From Escherichia phage vB_EcoP-101114UKE3, in the sequence record NC_070982.1: DNA of 64,000 nt. The stretch is one strand, 5' to 3'. The position numbers were made by a program, and so were the translations under genes. Positions 38,129-60,234 of the stretch are shown piece after piece. Each line of letters starts with the position of its first letter. The stretch's first letter is position 1. Below the pieces are notes generated by a model. That model ran no database searches. It worked only from the letters and a program-made list of their open reading frames with translations, and was not told the origin of the DNA.

Positions 38129-38440
38129 CTACTTCTCCACCACAAAGAGGTTAACTTCAATGAAAGTTTCGTATTGTGTTGACTCCTGCTTACGGGTGTA
38201 GTAGAAATGACGACCTTCTAATGCACCTCCGTACTGAGTGGCACATCTTTTAACCATCTCTTTTATCACATCTACAACTGATTCGCCTTTCCACGGACGT
38301 AACCCCTGAGTTGGGACTTTTGCTGTACAGGTTACTTGTGTGTAACCTACATCTTGTAGAGATATCTCAAGAATCAGCTTTGCCCAAGCATCAAAATTAA
38401 GCTTGGGGTTATATTTAACTTCAGTTTTGATATCAATCAT
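38129..38440 (-). CDS. Hypothetical protein (103 aa)
   Basis: Start overlaps the DNA polymerase stop. Confidence 0.45.
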   Translation of the reverse strand: MIDIKTEVKYNPKLNFDAWAKLILEISLQDVGYTQVTCTAKVPTQGLRPWKGESVVDVIKEMVKRCATQYGGALEGRHFYYTRKQESTQYETFIEVNLFVVEK

Positions 38441-40284
38441 TAGTGAGTATGATTCCAGTTTAATCCAATCTTACAATCTGATGCAAGAGGACATTCCATC
38501 TTGAGGTATTCCCCTGCTTTACGAACACATTCTTCAGTGAGGGTACGAAGTTTGTTAACATCATCACGATGTACAGTGAACTGTCCTTCATCATGCATGT
38601 CAATAACCTTCGCACAACGAACACCATCCCGCTCAATCCATTTATTGAGGAATAGCATTGCATACTTCATAACAATCGCCCCAGCGCTCTGTAAGAGTGT
38701 ATTTAAGGCTTTATGGACCATAACCTTTCCAGTTGCATCTCTTCTCATTGTAATACGACGTCCATCCACACCGTAGATATATCCACTTTGCGCTTTCTCT
38801 GTCATACGTTCAATAAGGATTGCAATACAAGGGTTCTCTGCTAAGAATCTTGCTCTCATGATAGCCCCTTCGTCAGAGCCACCACCTACAATACTTCCTA
38901 ACTTAGCGTCACCTGCCCCATAGTTAAAGGCATAGATAAACGTTTTAGCATTATCACGAGTAGGAAGGCCAGCAAGTTTTTGGTTATGTGAGTGAATATC
39001 TCCTTCTAAAAGAATATCTCTATACATAACAGCAGAAGCTAGACCACGTTCAGCTTCTCGTTTCTTAGCCGGGTTGTTTTCTCGCTCTGCTTCAGCGAGC
39101 ATCTCACGACATTCTTTAATAAGGTAGTGAGCTAGCATCCTCAGCTCAAGACCAGAGCCATCGTAACCTAAGAAGATTTCACGACCAGCAGGAACATAGA
39201 ACTTATAGGCACCTACGGGTTTGTCTTTCTTGCCCGGTTTTCCCACTTCGTAGATAATGTTAGTACCCTTTCGTACGTAACACCCATCAGGGATATGGTT
39301 GGTAATGATGAAAGGATGGTTATGACTATCGTCTGAGGAATAGTCAGATTGAAAAAGACTGCGGCACTCGTGACCAAACAAACCGCGAGAAGGAATATTA
39401 ACAACAATGCGATGTTTAAAACGAAATGTCGGAGTAGCGCAGCTATTAGCTTCGGCGGACAACTTACCATCTTTACGTTCCTTGTCGATAAGCCCGCTAA
39501 TCAAACCTAGCCTGTGAGCCGCTACAACGCGTCTCTTAAGCAAACTTCCTACACCCCCTAGCTCACCCCCAAGCCCCTCTTCAAGAGTCTCCTCAAGGTT
39601 TGTAGGGGCTGTGGGCCACTTGTTTGATGTAGCCAAAGCTTTTTTGATTTCATCAAAGGTTACAGGTTTCTTCCTATTCGGATTAAGACCTAAACCACTG
39701 ACGTAGGCTTTCATGTAGTTGACAGTGTGATAACGGAAATGTTTATCCAAAAATCTTCGGATATCAGCATCTATCATCTCCGCTGTCTGTTTCTCTTTAG
39801 CATTACCTCGAATCCAAGCAGAATACCATGCAGAGTATGTACCATACTTCTTCATAGCTCTACGGATTTCAAATGTATTCCAAGGTTTCTTAGAATAATT
39901 CCACTCTGGAGGTATGAAGCCCTCATCCATCAAGGCTTCTTTAATACGTGCATCTTTCGATGGGTCGAAGTCTACATACTCAACGCAAGTAAACGCCCCA
40001 CCGATATCTTCTCTTTTAAGACCAACCCTATCGCAATAGAGCTGAGGCCACTTCTGTAAAGCACCTGATTTCTTAAAAGGCTTAGCATAAGTTGAACCAT
40101 CCACCCGCATTTTAGGGAGGAGAGGAATCAGTTCTTTATCAATATTGACAATAATCTCTTTGAGAAGGTGAACAAACCACCGAGCGTTTCTTCTGTTGAA
40201 GTTGACTCCATGCTTCGCTTGTTTTGAGATTATATCAGCGACTGTCATCTCCGTTATGAAAGGTAACTTATCAGGGTTATCCAT
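38440..40284 (-). CDS. DNA polymerase, family A, polymerase domain only (614 aa)
   Basis: Motif A DGSGLELR, motif B RDNAKTFIYAFNYGAG, motif C IDMHDEGQ; ATG at 40284 with AAGGAG RBS; no 3'-5' exonuclease domain in this ORF. Confidence 0.8.
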   Translation of the reverse strand: MDNPDKLPFITEMTVADIISKQAKHGVNFNRRNARWFVHLLKEIIVNIDKELIPLLPKMRVDGSTYAKPFKKSGALQKWPQLYCDRVGLKREDIGGAFTCVEYVDFDPSKDARIKEALMDEGFIPPEWNYSKKPWNTFEIRRAMKKYGTYSAWYSAWIRGNAKEKQTAEMIDADIRRFLDKHFRYHTVNYMKAYVSGLGLNPNRKKPVTFDEIKKALATSNKWPTAPTNLEETLEEGLGGELGGVGSLLKRRVVAAHRLGLISGLIDKERKDGKLSAEANSCATPTFRFKHRIVVNIPSRGLFGHECRSLFQSDYSSDDSHNHPFIITNHIPDGCYVRKGTNIIYEVGKPGKKDKPVGAYKFYVPAGREIFLGYDGSGLELRMLAHYLIKECREMLAEAERENNPAKKREAERGLASAVMYRDILLEGDIHSHNQKLAGLPTRDNAKTFIYAFNYGAGDAKLGSIVGGGSDEGAIMRARFLAENPCIAILIERMTEKAQSGYIYGVDGRRITMRRDATGKVMVHKALNTLLQSAGAIVMKYAMLFLNKWIERDGVRCAKVIDMHDEGQFTVHRDDVNKLRTLTEECVRKAGEYLKMECPLASDCKIGLNWNHTH

Positions 40285-40300
40285 CACCCACTCCTTATAG

Positions 40301-43494: not shown

Positions 43495-44122
43495 CCCATG
43501 AGATTGGGAAAAGTTTACGAAGCTCTTCATCAACAGTTGATGCGAACACTCGTACTTCATACTGAGCATGGTCGGACAGTCGCTGACGACATAACTCTGA
43601 CCAGCCATATAAAGAACCTGTCCACACCCACTCAGTGATCATACCTTGAGGTAGAACGAATCGGGCTTGCTCTGGAGCAATAAACTTAATCAACTCATCA
43701 TATGACTCAAGAGCTGTTTCATATGCCCGATTAATCAGAACTAGTGCAGAGTTTTGCGCTCCCGTGGTGAGGAGATTCCCCGCACCTGCATGGAGGTCCG
43801 AAGGTCTTTCAAAAATCTCTTTAGGGATGAAGAGTTCAACTGCTCCATCTTTATACCGCCGGGACATTTCGTTCCACGAGAATCCAACTTGATGCTTGCC
43901 CAGCTGTCTCGCAATTGCGATTGGCGCTTTGCATCGGAAGCTAATTGTCGGATGGCGGAATGGTGTGACATGCTTTTCTCTGGCAAGGAACTTGATAAGG
44001 CGTTCATCTCGTTCATTTAACTCTCCTTCACGAGTAACCCCAAAGGAAACTCGAGCTGCATTAACAACAGATTTATCAGAACCCATTGCTTCAATTAGTG
44101 TTGCTTGTAATTGTTCGTTCAT
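43472..44122 (-). CDS. thyX: ThyX-like flavin-dependent thymidylate synthase homolog (216 aa), divergent
   Basis: ARVSFG, ARQ...NE-S-RRY and LPQG-x-T blocks fit the ThyX fold, but the RHR signature position reads KHQ. Confidence 0.5.
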   Translation of the reverse strand: MNEQLQATLIEAMGSDKSVVNAARVSFGVTREGELNERDERLIKFLAREKHVTPFRHPTISFRCKAPIAIARQLGKHQVGFSWNEMSRRYKDGAVELFIPKEIFERPSDLHAGAGNLLTTGAQNSALVLINRAYETALESYDELIKFIAPEQARFVLPQGMITEWVWTGSLYGWSELCRQRLSDHAQYEVRVFASTVDEELRKLFPISWDALREAH

Positions 44123-44136
44123 CCTTGAATTCTTCC

Positions 44137-44352
44137 TTAGTAATGAATCTTTTTATAAATCAGGTTGCTTCCACTTTCTGTTTCAATCCCTTTCTGGATT
44201 GTAATCTTAGAAGCACCGGTATTAGCAATTTTTAAAGCTCGTTTAAAGCGGCGAGCCTCTCTCCGTGTTGTGTATGAGGAGAAGCTAGGGATTGTACTAT
44301 CAAAATTAAACCACTTAACTACCCAAAAAGTAATCCAAGGTTTCTTTTCCAT
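44137..44352 (-). CDS. Small hypothetical protein (71 aa), member of a three-gene paralog family
   Basis: Shares W-x-W...TRREAR...KITI-x-K...Y-x-K-x-HY with 46217..46432 and 46432..46629. Confidence 0.45.
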   Translation of the reverse strand: MEKKPWITFWVVKWFNFDSTIPSFSSYTTRREARRFKRALKIANTGASKITIQKGIETESGSNLIYKKIHY

Positions 44353-44819: not shown

Positions 44820-45005
44820 TTATAGCATACAAAGAATAATAACAAGAGGTAGTGTTATAGCAAAATGTACCAGAACAACACTACCTAGCTTGATAGCTTT
44901 AACATCCTCTTCTGCTGGGTTTTCTTTAATTGCTAAATTTCGAGCTTTATATATAACAGTACCAACTATTAACGACCACACGGCCCACACAATCAGTGAA
45001 ATCAT
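44820..45005 (-). CDS. Small two-TM membrane protein (61 aa), tandem paralog of 45015..45194
   Basis: Two hydrophobic helices flanking a KENP-containing loop. Confidence 0.4.
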   Translation of the reverse strand: MISLIVWAVWSLIVGTVIYKARNLAIKENPAEEDVKAIKLGSVVLVHFAITLPLVIILCML

Positions 45006-45014
45006 ATCAAACCC

Positions 45015-45194
45015 TTATGCAGTCAACAGGTGGAGAAGGAAAGGAATGACAACAGAGAAGACTACCAGAGCAATGCTGCCATGTTTAATGGGTTTAGCGT
45101 CATTCGGGTTCTCTTTAAGCATCTGTTTCTGAGCTACATAAACGATACCGCCAACAAAAATTGCCCATACAGACCATACGATTGCTGAAAACAT
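45015..45194 (-). CDS. Small two-TM membrane protein (59 aa), tandem paralog of 44820..45005
   Basis: ATG at 45194 with AAGGA RBS; same helix-LKENP-helix layout. Confidence 0.4.
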   Translation of the reverse strand: MFSAIVWSVWAIFVGGIVYVAQKQMLKENPNDAKPIKHGSIALVVFSVVIPFLLHLLTA

Positions 45195-45257
45195 ACTCAT
45201 ATCCTTATAAAGAAGTTCGCCCCACCTCTTGAACAAAGAGACAGGGCGGAGGTTTGA

Positions 45258-45824
45258 TTAGTAAGACACATCACCACTGGAGTGGGACATGTTGCTCTTG
45301 ACGAAGTAACAGAACTTGCCAAGACCTTCATTAATTTCTTGAAGCATACTCTGGTCCACTGGATAGGTGCACAAGTCTGAATCAAACTCATCCATCTTCT
45401 CAATGATACACATAAGAGTCATGCACATGTCGGAAAGCATACCGTCCATGTCAAGATCAGCGTTACCTTCTCGGAACCAAGCATGACCTAAATAATTACT
45501 AGCAGTAGCATCCACTTTAACACAATGAAAGCGCATACGCTCTGCTATTCGGTCGCCTGCCTCACGAGCATAATCTTCTAGTTCATCGAACATACCATGA
45601 ACACCTTGGAAACCAGCTCCAGAGACGTTCCAGTGGTAGTTCTTTGCTTTGATGTGTAGAAGTTCAAGGTTAGCTTGCACACCACACAAGATGTGTTCTA
45701 AGCTGTTACCGCTAATCAGTTTATTCATTCCCTCAAGACGAGAGATAGAAGAGTCAGTAGCAGAGAATGGGTTGCTAGAACCCACTCGTGTTAGTTCTGG
45801 TAAGTCGAAGACATTATTATGCAT
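45258..45824 (-). CDS. Dps-like ferritin-fold protein (188 aa)
   Basis: KNYHWNVSGAGFQGVHGMFDELEDYAREAGDRIAERM matches the Dps pattern HW-x-V-x-G-x-F...H...F-x-E...D-x-IAER. Confidence 0.65.
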   Translation of the reverse strand: MHNNVFDLPELTRVGSSNPFSATDSSISRLEGMNKLISGNSLEHILCGVQANLELLHIKAKNYHWNVSGAGFQGVHGMFDELEDYAREAGDRIAERMRFHCVKVDATASNYLGHAWFREGNADLDMDGMLSDMCMTLMCIIEKMDEFDSDLCTYPVDQSMLQEINEGLGKFCYFVKSNMSHSSGDVSY

Positions 45825-46146
45825 TAGGTGCATCCCCTTCTAAGTTAGTTGAATTAGCTACATTACGAGCAATGTTATCCATGACCTGCTGTGTAATAAC
45901 AATGCAATTCTGAGGGTCTACTGATTTAGAACGCCCCATCTCAGGGTCATAGACTTTGACTCGCTTGGCTGTTGAGCCAGTAACTTGCAACACTTTGAGA
46001 AGATAGCCTTGGTTTCCAATAGACCATGCAACAACATCACGATTCTTGATATAACGACCAAGCATGTCACGATGATAGAACTGCTGCATAACTTTAGCTT
46101 TGCTAATCTCTTCAGATGGCGGGGCCACTTTACTCAAATCTAACAT
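45817..46146 (-). CDS. Hypothetical protein (109 aa)
   Basis: ATG at 46146 with AGGAGAG RBS; a near-copy of the TAATGTATA element lies about 40 nt upstream. Confidence 0.4.
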   Translation of the reverse strand: MLDLSKVAPPSEEISKAKVMQQFYHRDMLGRYIKNRDVVAWSIGNQGYLLKVLQVTGSTAKRVKVYDPEMGRSKSVDPQNCIVITQQVMDNIARNVANSTNLEGDAPNA

Positions 46147-46216: not shown

Positions 46217-46432
46217 CTAGTAATAAACCTTGCTGGATATGAATCCAGCACTGTTATGGATATTTTCAATCCAACGATGAATCTCCACCTTTTCAGCGAT
46301 TCCTAAAGCTTTTGTAGCTTTTATAGTTTTCTTAGCAAGACGAGCCTCTTGTCTTGTGTTGAATAATTGAATACAATCACCACCAAGAGCTTTGTTAGCC
46401 CATTTAGTACGAACTGCCCATAATTTATCCAT
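46217..46432 (-). CDS. Small hypothetical protein (71 aa), paralog family member
   Basis: NTRQEAR and SSKVYY motifs shared with 44137..44352 and 46432..46629. Confidence 0.45.
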   Translation of the reverse strand: MDKLWAVRTKWANKALGGDCIQLFNTRQEARLAKKTIKATKALGIAEKVEIHRWIENIHNSAGFISSKVYY

Positions 46433-46629
46433 TAGTAATGTACCTTTCCGCTGATATAGAAACGACCTGATTTAAAGTCTTGAGCTTTGTGGATAGTGAT
46501 CTTATTAATTGTGCTTTCACAACTTAATAAGAACTTCTTATGAGCGCGAGCTTCTTGACGGGTATTCCTAATACCCATTGACTCTGTACCACTGCTCCAG
46601 TGAATACGAACTACCCAACGTCTTTTCAT
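46432..46629 (-). CDS. Small hypothetical protein (65 aa), paralog family member
   Basis: ATG at 46629 with GTGGAG RBS; NTRQEAR...ITIHK...SGKVHY. Confidence 0.45.
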   Translation of the reverse strand: MKRRWVVRIHWSSGTESMGIRNTRQEARAHKKFLLSCESTINKITIHKAQDFKSGRFYISGKVHY

Positions 46630-46643
46630 TGTTCCAAACTCCA

Positions 46644-46835
46644 CTATCTGTCAACCGATTTAGGGACAAACTGCATTACACAGACCTGACTACGAGGGAG
46701 ATTTATTTCACAAGCGGCTCTTCTCGTCTCAATCTTAACGCTAGAATCTGGACCAACGTTAGATATAAATACTCCCATAGCAAATGCCCCAACTACAAAA
46801 CCTATAGCTAAGTAAGTAGCTTTTTCTTCTTTCAT
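46644..46835 (-). CDS. Small membrane protein (63 aa)
   Basis: N-terminal hydrophobic helix; weak RBS. Confidence 0.35.
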   Translation of the reverse strand: MKEEKATYLAIGFVVGAFAMGVFISNVGPDSSVKIETRRAACEINLPRSQVCVMQFVPKSVDR

Positions 46836-46840
46836 CTTGG

Positions 46841-47374
46841 TTATACACCCTTAGATGCAACTACACCATTACTGCCGTTGTATCGACCCTTCACTGCATA
46901 AGAGTCATCACCAGCGTGAGAGTGTTCGAACATAACCATTTGACCAACACGCATCCCAGCACGAACTCGTAAGCTATGATTATGGGTAACGTTATGAAAT
47001 TCAAAGGTTAGTTTACTGCTGTTAAACCCTGCATCAGCCCAACCAGCATGGAGGTGGTTTAAACCACAACGAGCCATTGAGGAGCGAAGTACAAACAGGC
47101 TTGAGATGTTATCTGGAAGGTTAAACTCTTCCATTGAGTGCGCTAAGAAGAATTGCCCCGGAGTGATAACAATACCATCTTCAGGGATTTTTACTTCTTT
47201 CCACTTGAGGTTTTCTTTAGCATCAATGTCAACAATTCCGTCAGCCTGTTCTTCAACAAGGATAGTATCACCAATACGGATATCCACGCTAGCAGCGTTA
47301 ACATATTTATGCTCCGCATCTAAAAAGCCATTATCAATAACGCTGTGTAATTCTTGAGAACCTAAAAGACTCAT
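46841..47374 (-). CDS. dcd: dCTP deaminase / dUTPase-family enzyme (177 aa)
   Basis: SSMARCGL and GWADAGFNSSKLTFEF blocks typical of the dCTP deaminase family. Confidence 0.7.
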   Translation of the reverse strand: MSLLGSQELHSVIDNGFLDAEHKYVNAASVDIRIGDTILVEEQADGIVDIDAKENLKWKEVKIPEDGIVITPGQFFLAHSMEEFNLPDNISSLFVLRSSMARCGLNHLHAGWADAGFNSSKLTFEFHNVTHNHSLRVRAGMRVGQMVMFEHSHAGDDSYAVKGRYNGSNGVVASKGV

Positions 47375-48819
47375 GAGTTTCTGTTTCCTTGTACAGATGA
47401 TGCCAAATTATTAATCATGTTACGAGCTGTTTCACGAGATAGTGTAACACCTGCTAAGTTGTTATGAAGCTCACCAGATAGCTCACGAGCAGCAGCTCGA
47501 AGTTCTGTACCAAGTGTAGTATCGGAGTGAGCCAAACCATTACGACGACTATAAGGTCGAGGAGCTTCGTTAGCGTCATTAGCCAATGATGCAAAACCAA
47601 TATGAGCAGCTTCACGAGACGCTATAGTTGACACTCGATCTTCCGTAGGGGTTGGCAAATCACCAACTTCTACACGTTCTATATCACCAGCACGTAGACC
47701 CTGAACGACTGAGCTTACTGTTTCCCATGAACGACGAGAACGCTGTAAATCACCCATTGACGGAGAAGAAGCAGGTCGAACAGTTACTCCACCTGTATCA
47801 TGAGTGACATGCCATGTACGAGTATCCATTCCAGAAGAGCGTGCACTACCAAAACTGCCAGTGAAAGTGTCACGAGGTGCCATTGTAGGAGGAACTGCGA
47901 ATCTTTCCTGTTGCCAAGAATCGCGTCTGTTAGTTCCCGGAGTCCAAGGCTGCGTGATTGCTTCAGCACCTATAGTGGTTAATCCGCTAGACCATTCTGT
48001 CTGTAGGTTAACTTCCTCGTCCAGATAACTACGACCCCTTTCCTGAGGAATGTTTAATATAGTTTCCATCATCTTCAGGGTATAATGACGACGCTGATTC
48101 TGATATAAATTTACACCAGCCATAGGTCCAACTAAATCACTAATCAGGTGAACTTCTGGCTCACCGAAAGCTCCCATTGCAAGGTGCATATATTCGGTAG
48201 AACTGCTATAAACTGCAACAGTTGCTTCAGGCCACTTCTTGTGAACATACTTCATTTCACGACCAGATACCACAGGAATGTCACGAGTGTATGACATTGC
48301 AAACAAACCTTCGTTTGACACATACATGTCATCAAGAGACATGAACCCCTGACAGATCATAGGAAAGCGACGGCTTAAAGTATCCATATCCAAAGGTAGA
48401 TTAATCATCATCTGGATTTTAACTTGATCAATCTCAATTTCCAGAATCTCTTGGAAAGTGAAAAGTGCTTCAGCGTAAGTTGTCCCACTAACAGGCTGAA
48501 CTAGGCGAGATGTAGTTTGAAGCCCTTTACTCTCTGTCCAAGACAAGAAGTTGTCAAGGAACAGTGCAGCATTCATCACGTTAGCAGGGTTGTTTTCCTG
48601 ACGGGTGTTCCAACGAAACCCTCCTTGGACTAGGAAGATATCCACATCATTCGGAGTTCGGTTCTGGAAGAACGTATCACGGATAGCACCACCTGCAATA
48701 ACAGGGTAGATACCATCAGGAACTACGTTGTCTCTGATCAGATTGCGAATCAGATCAAGCCCTACGCTGAGGGCTTCTCCTTCTTGAAGGTTTAATTCAG
48801 ACAATGGAATCTTAATCAT
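47371..48819 (-). CDS. Nucleotidyltransferase-fold protein with long S/T/R/G-rich C-terminal region (about 482 aa)
   Basis: GG-x13-DVD pattern (VIAGGAIRDTFFQNRTPNDVDIF) fits Pol-beta-type NTase; ATG at 48819 sits 2 nt after the exonuclease stop. Confidence 0.5.
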   Translation of the reverse strand: MIKIPLSELNLQEGEALSVGLDLIRNLIRDNVVPDGIYPVIAGGAIRDTFFQNRTPNDVDIFLVQGGFRWNTRQENNPANVMNAALFLDNFLSWTESKGLQTTSRLVQPVSGTTYAEALFTFQEILEIEIDQVKIQMMINLPLDMDTLSRRFPMICQGFMSLDDMYVSNEGLFAMSYTRDIPVVSGREMKYVHKKWPEATVAVYSSSTEYMHLAMGAFGEPEVHLISDLVGPMAGVNLYQNQRRHYTLKMMETILNIPQERGRSYLDEEVNLQTEWSSGLTTIGAEAITQPWTPGTNRRDSWQQERFAVPPTMAPRDTFTGSFGSARSSGMDTRTWHVTHDTGGVTVRPASSPSMGDLQRSRRSWETVSSVVQGLRAGDIERVEVGDLPTPTEDRVSTIASREAAHIGFASLANDANEAPRPYSRRNGLAHSDTTLGTELRAAARELSGELHNNLAGVTLSRETARNMINNLASSVQGNRNS

Positions 48820-48821
48820 TT

Positions 48822-49370
48822 CTACATTTTCCAATTTAGAGATGGGGGATTCTTATAATCAAATCCAGCCATTTGGCAAAGACACATGTAAACCTTAACT
48901 GTCAAGTTAACGTCTTGCTCACAATACGTGAACATGTCTTCAGTGAATGCATCCCATGCTTCTTCCTGTTCACCATAATCACCCTTCAGCTCTCCCAGAA
49001 ATTCGCCCCATTGCTTGAGGCCATGACCGCGAGGGCCATGTCTAGGGTCGCCTTTGGGGTATTCTGGACTATCACCAATACGGTCAGGCTTGAGATATCT
49101 ACTCAGGCACAAAGTATCGAAGACGTTAAAGCGAAAAGGTATCACATGAGAATAAAACTTAAACAAAGCAGGAAGGTCAAAATCAATAATATTGTGACCT
49201 ATTACTACATCAGCTTCTTTCAGTTTGTGTAGTGCTTCTTCAATTTGGTGAGGGCGATACCCCCACCGCTCTCCAGATAATACATCAAATATCCAGATAC
49301 ACCAGACATTCTGAATACCATCATAGAGATTATCACCCTCGATATCAAACGCATACAGTTTCTTTACCAC
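48822..49370 (-). CDS. DnaQ-like 3'-5' exonuclease, stand-alone proofreading domain (182 aa); GTG start
   Basis: Exo I FDIE, Exo [13 protein letters not shown], Exo III YCEQD; GTG at 49370 preceded by GGAGG. Confidence 0.65.
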
Positions 49371-51189: not shown

Positions 51190-51396
51190 TTAGTAAAACG
51201 ATCGTATTTCTTCCCACACATCATCTTGCAAGTTTCTAAAACCCTGCAAGGTTTGCTTTGTTCTGTGAATAAATTCTTCAGAGTGCTTATCAGGTGTGAG
51301 CATACTGACAAACTTTTCATAGCGATTAATCTTCCACCGCATCTTCAAGTAGTCAGATTCCAGCTTTCTTAACTTCTGCCTGTCAGTTACTGTCAT
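51190..51396 (-). CDS. Small hypothetical protein (68 aa)
   Basis: ORF-track frame 51190..51492 trimmed to the ATG at 51396. Confidence 0.35.
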   Translation of the reverse strand: MTVTDRQKLRKLESDYLKMRWKINRYEKFVSMLTPDKHSEEFIHRTKQTLQGFRNLQDDVWEEIRSFY

Positions 51397-51814
51397 CCTT
51401 CTCACCTGCCAGATATGCTGTCCAGTCACCAGATTCAACCAGAACATCTTGTTCTTCGTCGATGTGATAAATCCACGCTTCCACAGTTTCACCGCTGTCC
51501 AATAATACTGGAATCAGTGTACGCTTGTAAAAGGTGTATGGGTTATCATTACCACGATGACCTTCCAGACCGTCATACGGACCTTCCAGACCAGCTTGGG
51601 TTGTTTCAAAGACTTCTACACGAACAGGCTTACCATTGCTGTCATGCTCCAAAGATACACTTGGGAAGTATGCTGTGCAATACTGATACAGGTTACAGTT
51701 GTTTACTGTCCACCCTTCACCAATAGACACACCACCTGCACGAGCATTGATAGCGTGGTTGTGTTGACCTTTACGAAGAGAACCATACGTTGCAACTAAT
51801 ACTTTATCAGACAT
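51383..51814 (-). CDS. AIG2 / gamma-glutamyl cyclotransferase-like protein (143 aa)
   Basis: N-terminal YGSL motif (VATYGSLRKG) with downstream acidic residues; RBS AAAAGG. Confidence 0.55.
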   Translation of the reverse strand: MSDKVLVATYGSLRKGQHNHAINARAGGVSIGEGWTVNNCNLYQYCTAYFPSVSLEHDSNGKPVRVEVFETTQAGLEGPYDGLEGHRGNDNPYTFYKRTLIPVLLDSGETVEAWIYHIDEEQDVLVESGDWTAYLAGEKDDSN

Positions 51815-51818
51815 TACA

Positions 51819-52016
51819 TTACCTTTTGTTTAAAATTTCTTTTGTACAAGAAGTCCCGTTACACACGAGAACTGTTTGAGTTATAGAATCGACAACTGTT
51901 ACATGGCTGCCGCATTGAGTTATGATTTGACCTCTCCCTGAATCTTTAGAGATGCATTCATCAGCGGCGATCGCTGACACACTGAATAAGGAGAGGAAAA
52001 ATAGAATCTTTTTCAT
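51819..52016 (-). CDS. Small secreted cysteine-rich protein (65 aa)
   Basis: Signal peptide MKKILFFLSLFSVSAIA followed by about 48 residues with 4 Cys. Confidence 0.45.
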   Translation of the reverse strand: MKKILFFLSLFSVSAIAADECISKDSGRGQIITQCGSHVTVVDSITQTVLVCNGTSCTKEILNKR

Positions 52017-52022
52017 GGCTGC

Positions 52023-52439
52023 TTACCAATCATGTTGGAAACCAGAATATCCAGAGAAGATGATTGATCGGATTGGCTTTTCAGGGAATCCTTCAAAACA
52101 TCCCTTAATGGCTTTCTTGGTTTCATCAGAAATTGACTCTTTTTCACCAAACCAATATTCTTCAAAAATATCAGAGAAGATATAAGTTCGGTATCTTTCC
52201 AAGTCATAAAAACCTTCCACTGCACTTGTAACAGCTCTACTAATTACACTTGAAGCTACAGGAAATAAGTCACCGTGTTCCAGAAACAAGCACCAACGAT
52301 CAAAGAGAGGAATCTCTTCATCTTTCAGAAGACTTTCTAACTCTTCCTTTGCCTCTTTCTTGTGCTTCTCAAAGAGGTTTTTGGAATACTCTACATCTAA
52401 GATACGACTTTTAAACATATCCAGTTTATTATTAACCAT
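52023..52439 (-). CDS. Hypothetical protein (138 aa)
   Basis: RBS AGAGG. Confidence 0.45.
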   Translation of the reverse strand: MVNNKLDMFKSRILDVEYSKNLFEKHKKEAKEELESLLKDEEIPLFDRWCLFLEHGDLFPVASSVISRAVTSAVEGFYDLERYRTYIFSDIFEEYWFGEKESISDETKKAIKGCFEGFPEKPIRSIIFSGYSGFQHDW

Positions 52440-52496
52440 TTTACAACCTCTAGTTAAATTCGAACTAGCCTCCTCTTTCGAAGAGGCTAAAGCAAA

Positions 52497-52682
52497 TTAT
52501 TCTACTTCGAAGTGTTTGATCACACCAGTCAGTACATCAGATTGGAATGTACCCACTAGCTCTGTACCTCGGAAAAAGTTAACACTTGTTCCAAGTGATT
52601 CAAAGCGATCTGCTTGAATGTCCAGAGATTGAATATTTCCTTCTGCTGACATTGTACGAAACATGATTGTGTATTTATTCAC
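52497..52682 (-). CDS. Small hypothetical protein (61 aa), GTG start
   Basis: GTG at 52682 with AAGGGAG RBS, overlapping the upstream stop. Confidence 0.35.
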   Translation of the reverse strand: MNKYTIMFRTMSAEGNIQSLDIQADRFESLGTSVNFFRGTELVGTFQSDVLTGVIKHFEVE

Positions 52683-52921
52683 AGACTCGTTACTCCCTTA
52701 TCTGCTTGTGCAATTGCGATGATACGCTCAGCACATTCCATTGAATACTTATCACCTCGTTTGAGGAAGGTGATGATTGCAGAGAACTGATTACCAATCA
52801 TTCTCTTATTTGTGATACCAAACTCTTCACAGAGTTGGTTGATAGCTTTACGAGAGCCTACAATCAGAGGCTCTTTTTCTTCGGTCATTCCACGGCTGAT
52901 CAAATCTTCGATAGACAACAT
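52679..52921 (-). CDS. Small hypothetical protein (80 aa)
   Basis: ORF in the operon. Confidence 0.4.
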   Translation of the reverse strand: MLSIEDLISRGMTEEKEPLIVGSRKAINQLCEEFGITNKRMIGNQFSAIITFLKRGDKYSMECAERIIAIAQADKGVTSL

Positions 52922-52947
52922 TACAAATTCCTTTTTGTTTAATTTAA

Positions 52948-54183
52948 TTACAGAGTTACTGCTACTTCGCTACCTTCAACATTGACAGACTCTAACTTGC
53001 GAGGGTTATGAATCTGGACTGGATTGACCGGAACGTTCCAACCACTGCGGTAGAAGTTACGACCATCACAGAACAAAATGACATTGGCAGACATTGCATT
53101 CGGTTGAAGGTTGTTGTGGACGTGACGGATATCTGCAATCCAGTAACCACGAGACAAAGTGTAACCAGTAGGTGCATTACGAATAGTTTGAGTATTCATC
53201 TGACCTTCTAGCTGCATTTCTTCAGGAACTACATCTACCGAATCAACCGGCTGTGCTACTTGTCCTTCCAGTGCAAAGTTTTCATCATCAGCACTTTCAA
53301 TATCATCCACTAACTCACCGTCTCCATCTTCAATCGGAGTCTGGTAAACCACTTTATACTGAGGAGTATAGAGAGGGTTCTGAGCTTTAACAAACTCAAG
53401 AATGTTATGACGGTAGGTATCCAGAGTTGTACCAGTCAGGCCCGGTGCTGTATTAACTTCCAGTACCCACGCTTCTTGACCTTTGGTGATAATATCAACT
53501 GCACCGAAATCCAGACCCATTGATTCAACAGCTTTCACTGCATTGATCAGAGAGGCGTCATTCGGAGCATCTGTGAAGGAGCTTGAGTAAACCCAGCCAG
53601 TGTGGTGATTACGAATATCTTCACGATAGTTAGGGTCTTCGCGATAACCATTGCGACGAATCTTCTTCTGAACATAGGTGATTACACCTTTGAACACATG
53701 GACACGCCACTCACGACGTGGGCCTTGAATGCCTTTAGTGTACAGTTCAGCTCGACCAAGACCATCACCCGGTTCTACAACAACAATGCCCGAACCAGAG
53801 TGACCAGTCAGCTCATGGCGCTCATACACAATATTACCAGTGTTTGACCACTCTTGAGCAGTCTCTTGAACATCTGTGTATTCCACAGTTTTAACACCTG
53901 CTTGGTCCATCACGCTGAAAGCACGACGTTTGTTCGCTGCCATATGTAAGGCTGCGGTACGGTTAAGGACGGTTGCAGAACCAAAGAATGATTCAGGATA
54001 GCGACGGTTCCCGTAGTTAACAACCACATCACCTTCACGAGAACGCCAGCGGCTATTCTCTGAAAGAAGACCCATCACGTTAGCATTGATGCGTTCATCA
54101 CGGATAGTATCACTGATAGCAGATACTAGAGCGTTAACAGAATCAGACGGGCCATACGGAAGAACACGGATACGAGTAGTCAT
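52948..54183 (-). CDS. ATP-grasp ligase (411 aa)
   Basis: Glycine-rich GHSGSGIVVV loop and C-terminal VLEVNTAPGLTG motif typical of ATP-grasp enzymes. Confidence 0.7.
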   Translation of the reverse strand: MTTRIRVLPYGPSDSVNALVSAISDTIRDERINANVMGLLSENSRWRSREGDVVVNYGNRRYPESFFGSATVLNRTAALHMAANKRRAFSVMDQAGVKTVEYTDVQETAQEWSNTGNIVYERHELTGHSGSGIVVVEPGDGLGRAELYTKGIQGPRREWRVHVFKGVITYVQKKIRRNGYREDPNYREDIRNHHTGWVYSSSFTDAPNDASLINAVKAVESMGLDFGAVDIITKGQEAWVLEVNTAPGLTGTTLDTYRHNILEFVKAQNPLYTPQYKVVYQTPIEDGDGELVDDIESADDENFALEGQVAQPVDSVDVVPEEMQLEGQMNTQTIRNAPTGYTLSRGYWIADIRHVHNNLQPNAMSANVILFCDGRNFYRSGWNVPVNPVQIHNPRKLESVNVEGSEVAVTL

Positions 54184-54185
54184 TT

Positions 54186-54416
54186 TTAGATACCTTTTAG
54201 TTTAAGAATTTCGTTACGACAGGATTGAATTTTAGCTTCGATTGCCCAATACTCAGCGAACATTTCGTCTTCTTGGGCATCGCTTGGAGAGTCGATTAAG
54301 TTAAAAGCAAACGGATACAGCTTTCGCTGCTCCGTTACCAGTTGTTGAAGTCGGAGTTGTTGATACTCCAGCATTGTCAGGTGAGGCTTAGCTCCCTTGC
54401 TTGACATGAGGCTCAA
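54186..54416 (-). CDS. Small hypothetical protein (about 76 aa), possible TTG start
   Basis: TTG at 54416 with AAGGGG RBS; the first ATG is at 54407. Confidence 0.35.
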   Translation of the reverse strand: MSLMSSKGAKPHLTMLEYQQLRLQQLVTEQRKLYPFAFNLIDSPSDAQEDEMFAEYWAIEAKIQSCRNEILKLKGI

Positions 54417-54621
54417 CTTTAATCCCCTTCATTTTAACATAGTCAGCCAACACGTTATTGATAACGGTTGGAAAAGGGATTTCTACTGGAGAGTCAACCA
54501 GCTTCCCAATACCTTCTTGCATCCACTTCTGGATTGCTCGGAGGTTATCACATCCTGTGCTTGTCATCGGAATACGGCGGGTAGTTACCACGTTATCCAA
54601 CATCAGTTTACGAACTTCCAT
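54388..54621 (-). CDS. Small hypothetical protein (77 aa)
   Basis: RBS AAGAGG. Confidence 0.4.
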   Translation of the reverse strand: MEVRKLMLDNVVTTRRIPMTSTGCDNLRAIQKWMQEGIGKLVDSPVEIPFPTVINNVLADYVKMKGIKVEPHVKQGS

Positions 54622-54632
54622 AACTATACCTC

Positions 54633-56666
54633 TTAGTGTTTACCTTTACAGTAATCTGAATTACAGATCACCCTGTTTTCTTTGTTCAGTGAGCAAGTTT
54701 CTGCATCACGCCACGGAATTTGTTTATAACAGACTGCACAAAACCCAATTGAAGTCCAGAGGGCTTTTGTAAACTCAGCTGTTCGTTGTCCATCGTAACT
54801 GACAACTGTTTTTCGGAGAGAGGTTGACTTTTCTGGAAATGTCTCCGCTTTCTCAGCGGGTACCTCCTTTGGGGCATTCTTTGGACCATAAACAGAGATG
54901 GCATAAGTATCACCACCACGTTTTTCCAAATACGAATTAGGAACATCTGCAAGTGTGATGTCCCCTGAACGTTTTGCTGAGCTGACCATTACAATCATAC
55001 GGCTAAGCATACGTTCATCAACACGAACAGCTACTTCAGGACGACGTGGGTTGGTTGTGTCTACTGCTTTAGTCCAAATATAACCTTCAGATAGAGTAAC
55101 ATTCTTTACTTTATCTTTGATTTCTTTGGAGCAGATATAACAAACGTCTTCACCACGAAGTTTACTCATTTCGTTGTCAAACTCGAAATCAGTCTTGACT
55201 TCACCACAGATAGCACATACACCCAAAGGCACATCTTCTTCCTCTTCAGAGGTTTTAGATAACGCTTCGAAGCATTCTGGATGCCAGTATGCCTGATAAG
55301 CAAACACAGCCTTACGAGCATCTTTCCAGTCAATGTGCTTATCACAACCACCACAGTCACCATGAGAGTGAGATTCCCAGAACTTACGAGTGACTTCTAC
55401 ACCATTCTTAGTGATGAAGGAGTCCTCTGCATCAAAAGGGATATCATCATCAAAATCAGCAGTAGTGCTTTGAGGCTCCTTATCTGTAGCATCAACAAAC
55501 AGCCCTGAAGTTAGTACGAGGCGAATCATACTGTCCACTTCGGAGATACAAGCAATCGTCCCGCGATATACTACCTTTGGGTTTTCAAGAGCCTTAAGAT
55601 ATTCATCTTTGGCTACGTTGTGAACATCCCCTTCGACATACTCTTGAGCTTTATCATCGTAGATGTAACCAACCATCTTACCACGATCTGTGTTGTTATA
55701 AGCATGGAACTCGTGAGGAATAATATCCACACGACCATCACGACGATAAGGAAGACCGCGATCGGCAGCCAGTTTGTTCTGGTCTTCAATCGCTTTACGA
55801 CGACGAATGTCTCCGCTTGTCACGCCGGGCTTGTCGTCTTTGTTTCCGTAAATGTCGCTTGTGCTGCTGCTTGATTTGTTTGTCTGTTGGTTCTGATAAA
55901 GAGAGGAGTTCGAGTAATAGCCGCCCCAGCGACTCGTTACCGTAAAAACCGGAAGCGTGTGCTCCACCTCTTGAACCAGAGTCATACGACTGTTAGACAC
56001 ATCAAAGATATACTCAGTTCCCACTTTACATTCGAAGTGGTCATTGATATGGTTCTTATGGGACTTAGAACGCTCTAAAATCCACATAAGCATAGCTTCT
56101 TCAGAAGCTCCAAACCAATCCAAACCACAGCGGGCTAGGTGGAAAGGACGCTCATCATTACGGATAATGTGAAGTGTGTTGTCTTTAGCATCATGCCAAA
56201 TCAAAGTGAATGCACCATCCAGTTTTTGGATAGTCTCTGCTGCTCCAATGGTGTTAATTGAGTGGCAGATGTTTTCACTATCAACTTCGAAACGCTTACT
56301 GTCAGGAAGGAGATCTTGATCTAACAGGGTTCCATTATGAACCAGAGTAATATCCCCGTGAGTAAATGGGTGAGCATTTCGAGCATTGACAGCCCCACGA
56401 GTGGCATGTCGGCTGTGACCAACAATCCACGAAGGAGGAACTACGTAGTTCGTAAGCCCTTTGGTAATATTTGTATATTCTGTCTGGAGCATAAAAGCAT
56501 AAGAAGGAAGAGCTTCTTTATAAGAGAAGACTTGCTTTTCACCTTTACGCTGACCAAACACACCAGTTGAGTGCTGTCCACGGAAAACACCAGCATACAG
56601 AAGTTGGTTGAAAATGTCCAAATCTGCTGAGGTCATGTTGCCGCCAGCTAATACGATACCACAAAT
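54633..56666 (-). CDS. Ntn-hydrolase / class-II glutamine amidotransferase-like protein fused to a CxxC-rich C-terminal region (about 677 aa); predicted AUU start
   Basis: The frame upstream of the first ATG reads stop-K-I-CGIVLAGGNM..., giving the GAT-II N-terminal Cys; ATT at 56664-56666 has AGGTGG 8 nt upstream; RHATRG and NAHPF blocks; at least five C-x2-C pairs in the C-terminal third. Confidence 0.65.
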   Translation of the reverse strand: MCGIVLAGGNMTSADLDIFNQLLYAGVFRGQHSTGVFGQRKGEKQVFSYKEALPSYAFMLQTEYTNITKGLTNYVVPPSWIVGHSRHATRGAVNARNAHPFTHGDITLVHNGTLLDQDLLPDSKRFEVDSENICHSINTIGAAETIQKLDGAFTLIWHDAKDNTLHIIRNDERPFHLARCGLDWFGASEEAMLMWILERSKSHKNHINDHFECKVGTEYIFDVSNSRMTLVQEVEHTLPVFTVTSRWGGYYSNSSLYQNQQTNKSSSSTSDIYGNKDDKPGVTSGDIRRRKAIEDQNKLAADRGLPYRRDGRVDIIPHEFHAYNNTDRGKMVGYIYDDKAQEYVEGDVHNVAKDEYLKALENPKVVYRGTIACISEVDSMIRLVLTSGLFVDATDKEPQSTTADFDDDIPFDAEDSFITKNGVEVTRKFWESHSHGDCGGCDKHIDWKDARKAVFAYQAYWHPECFEALSKTSEEEEDVPLGVCAICGEVKTDFEFDNEMSKLRGEDVCYICSKEIKDKVKNVTLSEGYIWTKAVDTTNPRRPEVAVRVDERMLSRMIVMVSSAKRSGDITLADVPNSYLEKRGGDTYAISVYGPKNAPKEVPAEKAETFPEKSTSLRKTVVSYDGQRTAEFTKALWTSIGFCAVCYKQIPWRDAETCSLNKENRVICNSDYCKGKH

Positions 56667-56743
56667 TTTCTAATCCACCTGAAGGGTAAACCCTTTCATC
56701 TAATTAACCTTTAAATGCGCCCTGTATAAGAGCGCCCGTTGTG

Positions 56744-57844
56744 TTACAGCAGTCGTTCTAATTGCATTTCCAGATGGTCTGGAATATAACCAGTGACGTT
56801 ATCATCACTGCTACCTGATTCACGCATCAATGCAAACATGTGACGAATTTCACGAACCGTTGCGATTCGAGTGCTTTCAATCTGAGGGGTGTAGTAGGTC
56901 ATGATCTCTTCGTAGACACTGTTGGCATTACCGCGCACATATCCCAAGAAACCATAGAAGTCATTCATATCACGTAAGTTGATAAGGACTTCACCATCAG
57001 GGCCAGTCTGTTGCACACGAACACGACCAACCAAAGTTACAGATTGCTCACGACAGAAGAGAATATCACGAGCAAGACGATACCCTTCAGTGAGATCACT
57101 GTCTCTTGGAGTATAGTCTAGGGGTAGATGTTGAATCATAGGAGCGAAGCGCAGCTCATTCAACTTCTCAACATAAGCTTCATTGTCTAAATCTGCATAT
57201 TCAACAGCCAGTTTCTTGAGAACCAAGAAGCGGTTGACCAGATTCAGAAGTTGGCTCTTTTTCCACTTCGGCTCTGAGATACGGAACTCAACAGAACCAA
57301 ATTGAGATAGAGGCAAAAGATTAAGGGAGGTGTATTTATCCCAGCTATTAACAAGAGAGTGGAAGAAAGCTTCCCCGTCTCGGTTGAACGCTGACGAAGC
57401 ATTCATAACTTGTGCTTGAACGACAGCAAAAGCTGGACAGAAGTTGCTACGATAGCGATGGTATCCAGAACATTTGAACATCATCTTTTCATAGAACGTC
57501 CATCCAAGAATAACTTTCTTAAGGATATTACTATCAGCGTCACGCATATCCATATGAACGTGAGTGGAGCAGCGCCAAGTTCCCTCGGCTCCAGAATCCT
57601 GTACTGCTTCACTCAGATTGTTAATAGCACGAAGTAATTCTTCACCGTTGTAAGGTCGTGCACATACTAATTCACAACCATCACGAAGAGAGCCATCTTC
57701 AGTACAAACCCACATATCAGCGTCAATGTCAGTTGTACCTTCGACTTCTAACTCAATACCAACACCACACTGAAAAGCAATACTTGGATGCGGTTCAGAT
57801 AAGCGAGGGTTACGGTATCCAAAAACTTGTGCTACGGTTGTCAT
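56744..57844 (-). CDS. Amidoligase-like (carboxylate-amine ligase, glutamine synthetase-like fold) protein (366 aa)
   Basis: GVGIELEVEG near the N-terminus and a downstream STHVHMD motif; genomic context with GAT-II-like and AIG2-like genes. Confidence 0.45.
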   Translation of the reverse strand: MTTVAQVFGYRNPRLSEPHPSIAFQCGVGIELEVEGTTDIDADMWVCTEDGSLRDGCELVCARPYNGEELLRAINNLSEAVQDSGAEGTWRCSTHVHMDMRDADSNILKKVILGWTFYEKMMFKCSGYHRYRSNFCPAFAVVQAQVMNASSAFNRDGEAFFHSLVNSWDKYTSLNLLPLSQFGSVEFRISEPKWKKSQLLNLVNRFLVLKKLAVEYADLDNEAYVEKLNELRFAPMIQHLPLDYTPRDSDLTEGYRLARDILFCREQSVTLVGRVRVQQTGPDGEVLINLRDMNDFYGFLGYVRGNANSVYEEIMTYYTPQIESTRIATVREIRHMFALMRESGSSDDNVTGYIPDHLEMQLERLL

Positions 57845-58467
57845 AATGATTCCACCAACTCTACATTATATGATGACAGGTCTGAAGAAATATGCTTGAA
57901 CTTCTCCAGAAGGTTTAAAGATTGACGACCATTGTCGCCATAACCAGCTTCAAGAAGCACGTTTCCAACGTAAGCCCCTTTGTAATAAACTTTTCCATCG
58001 ACAGGATTGATATAGATGAAACGAGTAACCAACCCTTCAAACTCTGGATTAAACAGGTTATACACCAAATCACCCGGAATCGAACGTCCGAGAGAAGGTG
58101 GAGTACCACGAAGTTTATTCCCCATCAAGCCTTTAGCTCGCTGACGAACAGGGTTGATATGGGTCCAGCTCACCACGTTATTACCATGCTGAAGGTATCC
58201 TACATCTGGAGACTCCAGAATGAGGCTGTGATCAAACACTGGGATATTACTAACAATCTGACGTTCAAACTGACCTTCGGAGTTTTTAGTCCAGCGTTCC
58301 GCCTCAAACACTAAAGACATTTCAGCGTCGTGTGAGTAGTCGTCGATATCAAAGTTACCTTGCTGACGAACATCAAGCACATATAGAGGGAGGTTTTTAC
58401 CATCAGGTGATCGCTGAGCAATCCATGTTCCACAATAATAGTGTTGAAAATCTCTTAACAAGCTCAC
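57841..58467 (-). CDS. Hypothetical protein (208 aa), GTG start
   Basis: GTG at 58467 with AAGGTGA RBS; no early in-frame ATG. Confidence 0.45.
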   Translation of the reverse strand: MSLLRDFQHYYCGTWIAQRSPDGKNLPLYVLDVRQQGNFDIDDYSHDAEMSLVFEAERWTKNSEGQFERQIVSNIPVFDHSLILESPDVGYLQHGNNVVSWTHINPVRQRAKGLMGNKLRGTPPSLGRSIPGDLVYNLFNPEFEGLVTRFIYINPVDGKVYYKGAYVGNVLLEAGYGDNGRQSLNLLEKFKHISSDLSSYNVELVESL

Positions 58468-58476
58468 AATATCACC

Positions 58477-59283
58477 TTATACAATCTGGAGTTTAGAGGA
58501 GAATTTATCTGCTTCTTTAACATCGTTACTGTTGATGATGTTGTGAAGCTTTTCAATTGGAAGGCGAGAGTGAAGTGACATCAATACTTCCATATCACAG
58601 CCTTGAACAACCTTATCAACTTGCTCATAAACAAACTTGCGGGTTGACTTCTCGCCAATCCAGAAGTTAGAAAGAGAACGATATTCAATACCGTAATCCT
58701 TGTAACGAATGGCAGAAGCCTTTCCGTATAACTCTTTACGACGAGTGTCTTTATCCATGATTACAGCTGGCAAGGACAGGAAATAATCACACAACACACC
58801 CAACATCATTTGAGTTTGTCGAGTAATCTCTAAAGTCCCGGAGACACCAAGGTGCACATGACCCCCAGCAGTACGCAAACCCTTATTAGTTGCGACCGGT
58901 GAAGGGTTCTTTTGTCCAGTGAAGGCATTGAAATCAGGAGTACAACCAAATACAAAGGCTGACGGATGGAAAGATTCAAGCTCTTCTGAAGTGAACACAT
59001 GAGAGCTAATCCCAAGTGCTGCCTCCATGCCACGTTCATTGAGAACTTTGTTAGTCAGATCAATACCACGCTGAATGTTATCATCAAACGCTTCAAACCC
59101 TTCCTGTGGGTTAATATCAAACTCGGCCAGAACGTTGTCTTCTTGAAGACGAACATCAGGAGCCAGATCAATTTTATTGTCTTTAGAACAGCCCAGCTTA
59201 CCAGCCACAGAGGTGATAATACCGGAAGCAGTACGAACAAACATTTCAGGGTCAGAGCCAATAAGGAAAGCGCGCTTAGTCAT
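58477..59283 (-). CDS. Second amidoligase-like protein candidate (268 aa)
   Basis: ATG at 59283 with GGAG RBS; LIGSDPEMFV and GGHVHLG motifs parallel the E-rich and HVH motifs of 56744..57844. Confidence 0.35.
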   Translation of the reverse strand: MTKRAFLIGSDPEMFVRTASGIITSVAGKLGCSKDNKIDLAPDVRLQEDNVLAEFDINPQEGFEAFDDNIQRGIDLTNKVLNERGMEAALGISSHVFTSEELESFHPSAFVFGCTPDFNAFTGQKNPSPVATNKGLRTAGGHVHLGVSGTLEITRQTQMMLGVLCDYFLSLPAVIMDKDTRRKELYGKASAIRYKDYGIEYRSLSNFWIGEKSTRKFVYEQVDKVVQGCDMEVLMSLHSRLPIEKLHNIINSNDVKEADKFSSKLQIV

Positions 59284-60226: not shown

Positions 60227-60234
60227 ATTCGCCT

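Follow-up and report, generated by a model that had tools for sequence, protein, structure and literature searches.

Gad2, the second anti-defence protein described against Gabija, is a 400-amino-acid (aa) protein of Bacillus phage SPbetaL7 that is predicted by AlphaFold to be a nucleotidyltransferase (NTase). Deletion of gad2 renders SPbetaL7 sensitive to Gabija, a Brevibacillus homologue of Gad2 blocks this system, and the SPbetaL7 protein is toxic on expression (Yirmiya et al.). In this work we analysed a 64,000-nucleotide (nt) stretch of Escherichia phage vB_EcoP-101114UKE3 (NC_070982.1), hereafter the window, and within it a gene at 47371..48819 encoding an NTase domain followed by a tail predicted to be disordered. 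Both RefSeq and PHROGs already list the protein as an NTase, and Gad2 had been described as a family before. What the analysis adds is an explicit link between this core gene of the Gordonclarkvirinae and Gad2, an argument against its product being a CCA-adding enzyme, and the recognition of a lysine-free tail as a family trait. Coordinates refer to the window, and all features lie on its minus strand unless marked (+).

The gene is a complete coding sequence of 482 codons plus TGA, running as one open reading frame (ORF) from an ATG at 48819 to the stop codon at 47373..47371 according to the ORF list and translation, in agreement with an earlier note made from the sequence alone. An alternative TTG start five codons upstream would yield 487 aa; ATG is the start used in the identical GenBank record and in all relatives. 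The protein is 100% identical to USM81179.1 (MZ234015, Escherichia phage vB_EcoP-101114BS3), which is labelled 'hypothetical protein', and RefSeq records of relatives read 'nucleotidyltransferase', as does PHROG 12715, which covers the full length of the window protein with an E-value (E) of 2e-165. MZ234015 is classified by its record in the Gordonclarkvirinae, genus Kuravirus. The NTase gene itself is closest to those of Suseptimavirus phages (SU7, ECBP2 and EK010, for example), which are phiEco32-like podoviruses with prolate heads. Window coordinates are offset from those of MZ234015 by 21547, the window being a circularly permuted version that wraps the ends of that record.

The folded NTase domain occupies residues 1-283 (47971..48819) and comprises a head similar to that of class II CCA-adding enzymes and poly(A) polymerases, with a helical extension. 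The 'GG ... DVD' signature reported in the earlier note corresponds to motif A (residues 41-62, IAGGAIRD...PNDVDIF; 48634..48699), which contains a GG-xx-RD nucleoside triphosphate (NTP)-binding turn and, as catalytic residues, the aspartates D58 and D60. In an alignment of 36 relatives (25 from a long clade and 11 from a short clade), with identities to the window protein as low as 13-34%, residues G43, G44, R47, D48, D58, D60 and Q136 are invariant, P56 and F62 nearly so, and M138 is kept in 34 sequences. The Pol-beta pattern hG[GS]...[DE]h[DE]h is present in 36/36 relatives as G43-G44 and D58-V59-D60, far above chance. An AlphaFold2 (AF2) model of residues 1-287 built on this alignment reached a predicted local distance difference test (pLDDT) score of 89.3 and a predicted template modelling (pTM) score of 0.88, with the folded part extending to about residue 283 and forming a predicted alpha/beta sandwich similar to those of solved NTases. 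Foldseek searches of this model against the PDB returned CCA-, CC- or A-adding enzymes as all of the top 23 matches, with template modelling scores (TM-scores) of 0.3-0.4. The model, the structural matches and the conservation together lend good support to an NTase fold with an intact NTP- and metal-binding core, and the enzyme is, judging from its conserved residues, probably active. The suggestion that it might instead be a signalling NTase did not hold, since the CD-NTase and cGAS-MAB21 families match it no better than other NTases do. Conventional searches were largely silent: NCBIfam and PADLOC returned nothing for the window protein, Pfam gave no match to the full-length sequence at E up to 1 in a local copy apparently lacking PF26128, a single-sequence PDB search produced nothing meaningful, and a profile PDB search yielded sub-threshold CCA matches alone.

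Downstream of motif A, a beta-hairpin (residues 120-140, TFQEILEIEIDQVKIQMMIN; 48400..48462) falls on AF2 strands 122-130 and 133-143. On the first of these strands, all 25/25 long-clade members have D or E at position 124, a candidate third metal ligand with a putative catalytic role; this position aligns uncleanly in the short clade and in Gad2, and the strand beside it has a non-acidic invariant residue, Q136. Two further conserved elements follow. The motif FPMICQG (residues 152-158; 48346..48366) has F or M at position 152, P at 153 and C, S or A at 156, and is the counterpart of FDFTVCMG in Gad2. The motif PVVSGREMKYVHKKWP (residues 182-197; 48229..48276) corresponds in profile alignments obtained with hhalign to YPxVSxxRVxKYxDKGY in Gad2; within it, 20/25 sequences of the long clade and 10/11 of the short clade have R187, and D/E188, Y191 and K195 are each found in 25/25 long-clade sequences.

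The relationship with Gad2 was established by comparison with a profile of seven aligned homologues taken from Table S10 of Yirmiya et al. The whole family of the window protein aligned to this profile with a probability of 96.7% (E 3.8e-10) over 122 columns, and a profile restricted to the Gordonclarkvirinae did so with 93.3% (E 2.7e-7) over 136 columns, encompassing window residues 19-197. The motifs common to both families are AGGxI...DxDxF, IQxM, F-x-x-x-[VI]-C-x-G and P-x-V-S...R...K-Y, and the alignments end at Gad2 residue 158-161. Precomputed labels for the Pfam family PF26128 ('Gad2') are found on Kuravirus-type orthologues and on the short relatives P0190 (unmarked) and P0097 ('faint'). 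On the strength of these comparisons, residues 1 to about 283 can be assigned to a phage-specific Gad2 family of NTases, an offshoot of the class II CCA-adding/poly(A) polymerase head domain. This homology lends indirect support, by analogy, to the proposal of the earlier note that the protein might interfere with host defence.

These observations led us to a tentative reading in which the window protein would be an anti-defence enzyme of the Gad2 family, made together with the replication genes, whose target for nucleotidylation would be either a protein or the 3' end of a nucleic acid. Transcription and translation of the gene are probably shared with the genes for the primase/helicase, the exonuclease subunit of the polymerase and dCTP deaminase. 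With an NTP or a deoxy-NTP as substrate, the enzyme would add a nucleotide to a protein hydroxyl or to a 3'-OH, whether of DNA or of RNA. Its tail would act as a flexible tether bringing the catalytic domain to a partner, for instance a host protein, the ends of DNA or the replisome, and the purpose of the activity would be to neutralise a DNA-targeting host defence such as Gabija early in replication. The anti-defence purpose is proposed because of the Gad2 analogy and because related enzymes are harmful when overexpressed: gp22 of phage Emajogi, a short NTase relative assigned to the Gad2 family in some records, is cytotoxic under such conditions. The domain is also under strong constraint, with a ratio of nonsynonymous to synonymous substitution rates (dN/dS) of about 0.1. 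Further points counted in favour of this reading, and described below, are the DNA-metabolism setting of the short homologue in phage gh-1, the restriction-modification resistance of the Gordonclarkvirinae, the naming of this gene as a candidate by the BASEL authors and a peptide detected for the SU10 orthologue. A role in tRNA maturation is unlikely.

The tail spans residues 284-482 (47374..47970) and carries an R316-x-x-F319 motif, an RTWHV motif and a conserved end of about 45 residues. Its composition is biased (R 11%, S 11%, A 10%, T 10%, G 8%) and excludes both lysine and cysteine. Counted over 202 residues, it contains 22 Arg, 44 Ser+Thr, 17 Gly, 4 Trp and 0 Lys, the last lysine of the protein being residue 249. 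The earlier note had described an S/T/R/G-rich, low-complexity C-terminal region of about 250 aa with no obvious domain. The bias was confirmed, and neither library searches nor structure prediction detected a domain in the tail; its length is closer to 200 aa, and entropy in 40-residue windows (3.4-3.7 bits, against 3.5-4.0 in the domain) does not qualify it as low-complexity. A full-length AF2 model from a shallow alignment had an overall pLDDT of 42.5, with 22-40 in the tail. Composition, rapid divergence, indels and these low scores suggest that the tail is probably intrinsically disordered. Its end (residues 438-482, ELRAAARELSGELHNNLAGVTLSRETARNMINNLASSVQGNRNS; 47374..47508) is near-identical in seven Suseptimavirus-type phages in which the tail middle varies, and is predicted to be helical (helices 435-454 and 462-478 in the low-confidence full-length model), making it a candidate binding element.

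The absence of lysine extends to the family: the combined 1165 residues of 13 diverged tails, which range in length from 22 to 202 residues, include 125 Arg but no Lys. At a lysine frequency of 5.5%, as found in the larger proteins of the phage, a lysine-free stretch of 202 residues has a chance of about 1e-5. The trait is not unique in this phage, where a 304-aa lysine-free run occurs in the 344-aa PHROG 1265 protein encoded at 20308..21342 (+); it is notable mainly as a feature common to 13 diverged lineages, persisting where the tails have become too different to align. Lysine-free runs of 187 and 141 aa were also observed in two paralogous 'DNA ejection proteins' (22159..23211 (+) and 23221..24189 (+)), and one of 172 aa in the scaffolding protein (6215..7297 (+)). 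A tendency to avoid lysine may characterise a broader set of this phage's proteins. The detection by mass spectrometry of one peptide of the NTase orthologue in a crude preparation of phage SU10 (PMC4281155), together with the lysine-poor ejection proteins, raised the idea of an enzyme packaged in the virion and ejected. This was judged unlikely, as gp20-24 are the proteins identified as ejected in purified SU10 virions and the NTase goes unmentioned in the main text describing them.

The genomic setting of the gene is well conserved. Upstream lies a gene of the split family-A DNA polymerase, encoding its 3'-5' exonuclease subunit of 182 aa (48822..49370; Pfam DNA_pol_A_exo1, PHROG 38876/403), and downstream the gene for dCTP deaminase (46841..47374; Pfam DCD E 1.6e-34, PHROG 1663). 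The order primase/helicase, exonuclease subunit, NTase and dCTP deaminase is kept in all the Gordonclarkvirinae examined, and the exonuclease-NTase-dCTP deaminase order was verified in EP335, Bas94, Paul and Bas92. The same gene order was found in a 90-kb IMG/VR phage contig (L015), whose NTase has 285 aa and a short tail. The earlier note had inferred translational coupling on both sides of the gene. At the 3' junction, where the NTase stop and the dCTP deaminase start overlap (ATGA), the arrangement fits such coupling; at the 5' junction the exonuclease stop codon and the NTase ATG are separated by a 2-nt gap, with no overlap. A promoter and terminator scan around the gene, which did not include phage-specific promoters, returned nothing above chance.

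A profile search of 1.84 billion representatives identified 219 relatives at E <=0.001, mostly of 180-320 aa, comprising tailed proteins of 395-482 aa and many tail-less proteins of 180-320 aa; those with examined context reside on phage or phage-like contigs. A search for related loci with a narrower alignment returned five loci. In the T7-like phage gh-1, a 184-aa homologue is encoded between lysozyme and HNH endonuclease genes, one gene upstream of the primase/helicase, and Foldseek searches against viral models matched many 170-220-aa 'poly(A) polymerase head' proteins in the Autographiviridae (E 1e-6 to 1e-4). The short Gad2-family NTase P0097 is encoded on a 42-kb phage-like contig (L017; GCA_043956575.1 JBINOC010002997.1, 1..10759), near genes for ThyX, for a protein with a dGTP_diPhyd_N domain and for an NTase of the RlaP type, as well as a Prok-JAB/ThiF pair of the kind that characterises ubiquitin-like conjugation systems.

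Several points weigh against an anti-defence role of the Gad2 type. The precomputed PF26128 label is absent from the window protein and from its 22 closest Suseptimavirus-type proteins, and the match of the window protein to PolyA_pol is sub-threshold. Gad2 possesses a structured Lys/Glu/Tyr-rich C-terminal domain of about 200 aa (residues ~190-400 of its ~400 aa) without counterpart in the window protein, and the Bacillus and Brevibacillus Gad2 proteins have T-S at the place of R47-D48 in motif A. The disorder predicted for the tail draws on its composition and divergence and on a model of low confidence. Genes against host defence tend to be accessory and to occupy variable loci. In all genera examined, as well as in the distant 90-kb phage, the window gene is part of the core replication operon with synteny preserved, and this position, together with the strongly constrained domain, fits a housekeeping role in replication or nucleotide metabolism better; for this reason we hold the anti-defence reading with somewhat less than even confidence. 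The mechanism of Gad2 was, moreover, still listed as unknown in a February 2026 review, so that to state that a protein works like Gad2 has little mechanistic content. A literature search retrieved no paper connecting Gabija with Kuravirus, and SPbetaL7 Gad2 was not recovered when the phage collection was searched by tblastn with P0190 and P0197 as queries.

A more specific and decidedly speculative version of the anti-defence proposal would have the enzyme bound to the replisome or to DNA ends through its lysine-free tail, with Arg and aromatic residues as 'stickers', and either modify replicating phage DNA by capping or tailing its 3' ends or else nucleotidylate a sensor protein of the host, thereby blinding end-sensing and DNA-targeting defences such as Gabija. 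If true, it would explain both the resistance of the Gordonclarkvirinae to restriction and other defences and the open mechanism of Gad2, and the absence of lysine in the tail would represent a selected 'lysine desert', possibly avoiding conjugation or modification by host or phage enzymes.

Among the alternatives, the one that fares best is that of a replication accessory enzyme, held at the replisome by its tail and acting on phage DNA or RNA primers as a terminal-transferase-like or primer/3'-end tailing activity, with any effect on defence as a by-product. The fixed gene order across the Gordonclarkvirinae and the distant 90-kb phage agrees with such a role, as do the core status and low domain dN/dS (~0.1) of the gene and the location of short homologues in the DNA-metabolism module of T7-like phages, near the primase/helicase. 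Aromatic tail ends offer a further argument. They were observed in the intermediate-length relatives P0071, P0073, P0075, P0076, P0077, P0080 and P0081 (RSEW, EYDF, WREVW, GGWTF, IRWQW, TWDW and RRFNF, respectively), and recall the tip of the single-stranded DNA-binding protein SSB and the C-termini of T7 gp2.5 and gp4, which dock on replisome partners. The tail of the window protein, however, ends in ...GNRNS, with no aromatic residue, its nearest characterised relative, Gad2, is an anti-defence protein, and we know of no phage replisome that needs a Pol-beta-type NTase. Overall, we consider a replisome accessory role rather unlikely, if credible.

An enzyme acting on the 3' ends of tRNA or other RNA, as in the CCA-adding or poly(A) polymerase identity put forward in the earlier note, appears improbable. 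In its favour, the closest structural matches are CCA-adding enzymes and the Escherichia coli poly(A) polymerase, motif A is canonical (GGAIRD...DVD), and relatives match Pfam PolyA_pol (PF01743), 15/36 family members doing so at E <=0.01 and P0068 scoring 25.6 bits. In the window protein itself the motif A stretch is the sole part that matches: the isolated N-terminal domain aligned to PolyA_pol over residues 41-63 with E 0.21 and 12.4 bits, against a cutoff of 23. Likewise, alignment of the family with E. coli Cca was confined to 57 columns around motif A (E 6.7e-5), and the NCBIfam Cca and PcnB models did not match the window protein. The CCA/poly(A) identity fails on architecture, since the helical neck, body and tail RNA-binding domains of CCA enzymes (~350-470 aa folded) are not present. 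It appears to fail on specificity motifs as well, although the mapping to E. coli Cca, which goes via the Gad2 profile, is of low confidence (probability 0.9%, E 0.061). In that mapping, the counterpart of the ribose-binding motif B (RRDxTxN) is F152-P-M-I-C-Q-G, in which the conserved Asp, Thr and Asn are replaced, and that of motif D (EDPLRxLRxxRF) is D180-I-P-V-V-S-G-R-E-M-K-Y, in which the base-templating Asp and Arg are not conserved. The stretches compared are FPMICQG and DIPVVSGREMKY, and because of the weak mapping statistics their loss of the defining RRD and EDxxR residues counts as supporting evidence only. The phage does carry a single tRNA-Arg(UCU), located outside the window at about 43941..44016 (minus strand) of MZ234015, and no tRNA was found within the window; this gene encodes its own 3' CCA, and the host has its own Cca. 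Judged by its architecture, the window protein is probably not a CCA-adding enzyme.

Slightly less probable still is a part in a covalent DNA-modification pathway with dCTP deaminase. The BASEL paper describes the Gordonclarkvirinae as 'remarkably resistant' to restriction-modification, from a cause that is unknown, and its authors name the NTase and the dCTP deaminase as candidates for DNA modification. This proposal is in line with strong restriction-modification resistance in phages without a known modification pathway or inhibitor, and with the overlap of the very pair of genes to which the authors point. The presence of a phage ThyX (43472..44122) weakens it, since dCTP deaminase and ThyX together form an ordinary route of dTTP supply, and the immediate surroundings of the NTase gene showed no modification genes of the glycosyl, amino-acyl or kinase type. 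To our knowledge, no DNA hypermodification pathway uses an NTase of the CCA/poly(A) polymerase type.

Finally, the possibility raised in the earlier note that the C-terminal region is a frameshifted or separate ORF is refuted by comparison with relatives, all of which, where examined at the level of DNA or annotation, encode a single ORF. In an annotated phage collection, five other phages (EP335, Bas94, Paul and Bas92 among them), covering the genera Kuravirus and Nieuwekanaalvirus and unclassified BASEL isolates, possess one ORF of 414-447 aa at the same place. These orthologues show about 32% identity to the window protein over the first ~285 residues and have tails that differ in length and sequence. 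Including seven Suseptimavirus-type phages alongside the Kuravirus and Nieuwekanaalvirus members, the single ORF ranges from 414 to 490 aa, and 21 further phage records, with 87-100% identity, align from end to end in a single frame. Within the set of seven close relatives, every indel is in frame (a multiple of three), and pairwise dN/dS, excluding one near-identical pair with almost no synonymous change, is 0.04-0.17 for residues 1-285 and 0.22-0.47 for the tail. The positions R316, F319, S361 and Q373 of the tail are kept between genera. The single ORF, the in-frame indels and the tail dN/dS hence indicate that the tail is translated in frame and under purifying selection, more loosely than the domain. 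An artefact, whether a fusion of two genes through a frameshift or sequencing error or a pseudo-enzyme in decay whose tail has no significance, might be suspected from a tail with no domain match and a structure prediction of very low confidence, but it is already contradicted by these comparative data, by the invariance of the catalytic residues and by the SU10 peptide, and is exceedingly improbable.

Several further features of the window were recorded. The split family-A DNA polymerase consists of the 182-aa exonuclease (48822..49370) and a 615-aa polymerase-domain protein (38440..40287) encoded about 8.5 kb apart, with nucleotide-metabolism genes in between; since the polymerase domain is encoded at 38440..40287, the NTase can be ruled out as a missing polymerase half. 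A block of genes for enzymes forming peptide or amide bonds extends over 51383..61452 and includes a gamma-glutamyl cyclotransferase (GGCT)-like protein (51383..51814), a RimK-like ATP-grasp protein (52948..54183), a 667-aa class II glutamine amidotransferase-like protein (54633..56636), an amidoligase (56744..57844) and a COOH-NH2 ligase (58477..59328), together with proteins that have no assigned function. Of these genes, the GGCT-like and the RimK-like ones are also present in the 90-kb relative. Three paralogous ORFs of about 70 aa (44137..44352, 46217..46432 and 46432..46644, the last two abutting) share TRxEARxxKK ... KITIxK ... Y at their ends, and two adjacent ORFs (44820..45005 and 45015..45236) resemble paralogous hydrophobic proteins with two hydrophobic segments each and the motif KENPxxxxxKxIKxGSxxLV. 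The 191-aa product of 45258..45833 is annotated as 'integrase' in MZ234015; it matches PHROG 3636 'DNA binding protein' and is called DNA-binding in relatives, and the integrase label is probably a mis-annotation. The sign of the GC skew flips near 30-31 kb, where gene orientation changes from plus to minus.

Gad2 is one of few anti-defence proteins predicted to be enzymatic. A divergent relative encoded by a core gene throughout an easily grown subfamily of coliphages, with members in the BASEL collection, of which Bas86-88 have the protein of the window type, would offer a tractable E. coli system in which to study how a Gad2-type enzyme functions, and the Gad2 homology provides a testable alternative to the DNA-modification explanation of restriction resistance advanced by the BASEL authors. 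Few phage enzymes would be expected to have a tail like this one, lysine-free, probably disordered and about 200 aa long, and it may reveal a mode of targeting. Even if the protein turned out to be a routine replication accessory, the analysis would correct the 'CCA-adding enzyme' label carried by some records.

Set beside the known systems, the window protein shares with class II CCA-adding enzymes and poly(A) polymerase I (PF01743) the canonical motif A (GGxxRD ... DxD) and the head-domain topology. It differs from them in possessing none of their neck, body and tail RNA-binding domains, in falling below the thresholds of their Pfam and NCBIfam models, in TM-scores of 0.3-0.4 and, on a low-confidence mapping, in not keeping their motif B and D residues. 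The short head-domain NTases, among them those of gh-1 (NP_813759), Emajogi (gp22), LKD16, LIMEzero, PP2, phiAS7 and Cd1, belong to the same family as the window protein, and those of gh-1 and Emajogi are likewise encoded in a DNA replication module. They measure 170-220 aa, have no tail and carry versions of the motifs (FDWNIC and NPFSxLRRGYRFSERYG) that are nearer to those of CCA enzymes, whereas the Gordonclarkvirinae clade has extra N- and C-terminal structured elements in addition to the tail. With Gad2 of SPbetaL7 and of a Brevibacillus laterosporus prophage, the window protein has about 23-25% identity over some 130 residues. Both are phage-borne NTase domains of the same lineage, neither has a tRNA-binding body, and some members of the Gad2 family are harmful to cells when overexpressed. 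The two part in their genomic setting: gad2 resides in a variable anti-defence locus of temperate phages, whereas the window gene belongs to the core of a replication operon in virulent podoviruses.

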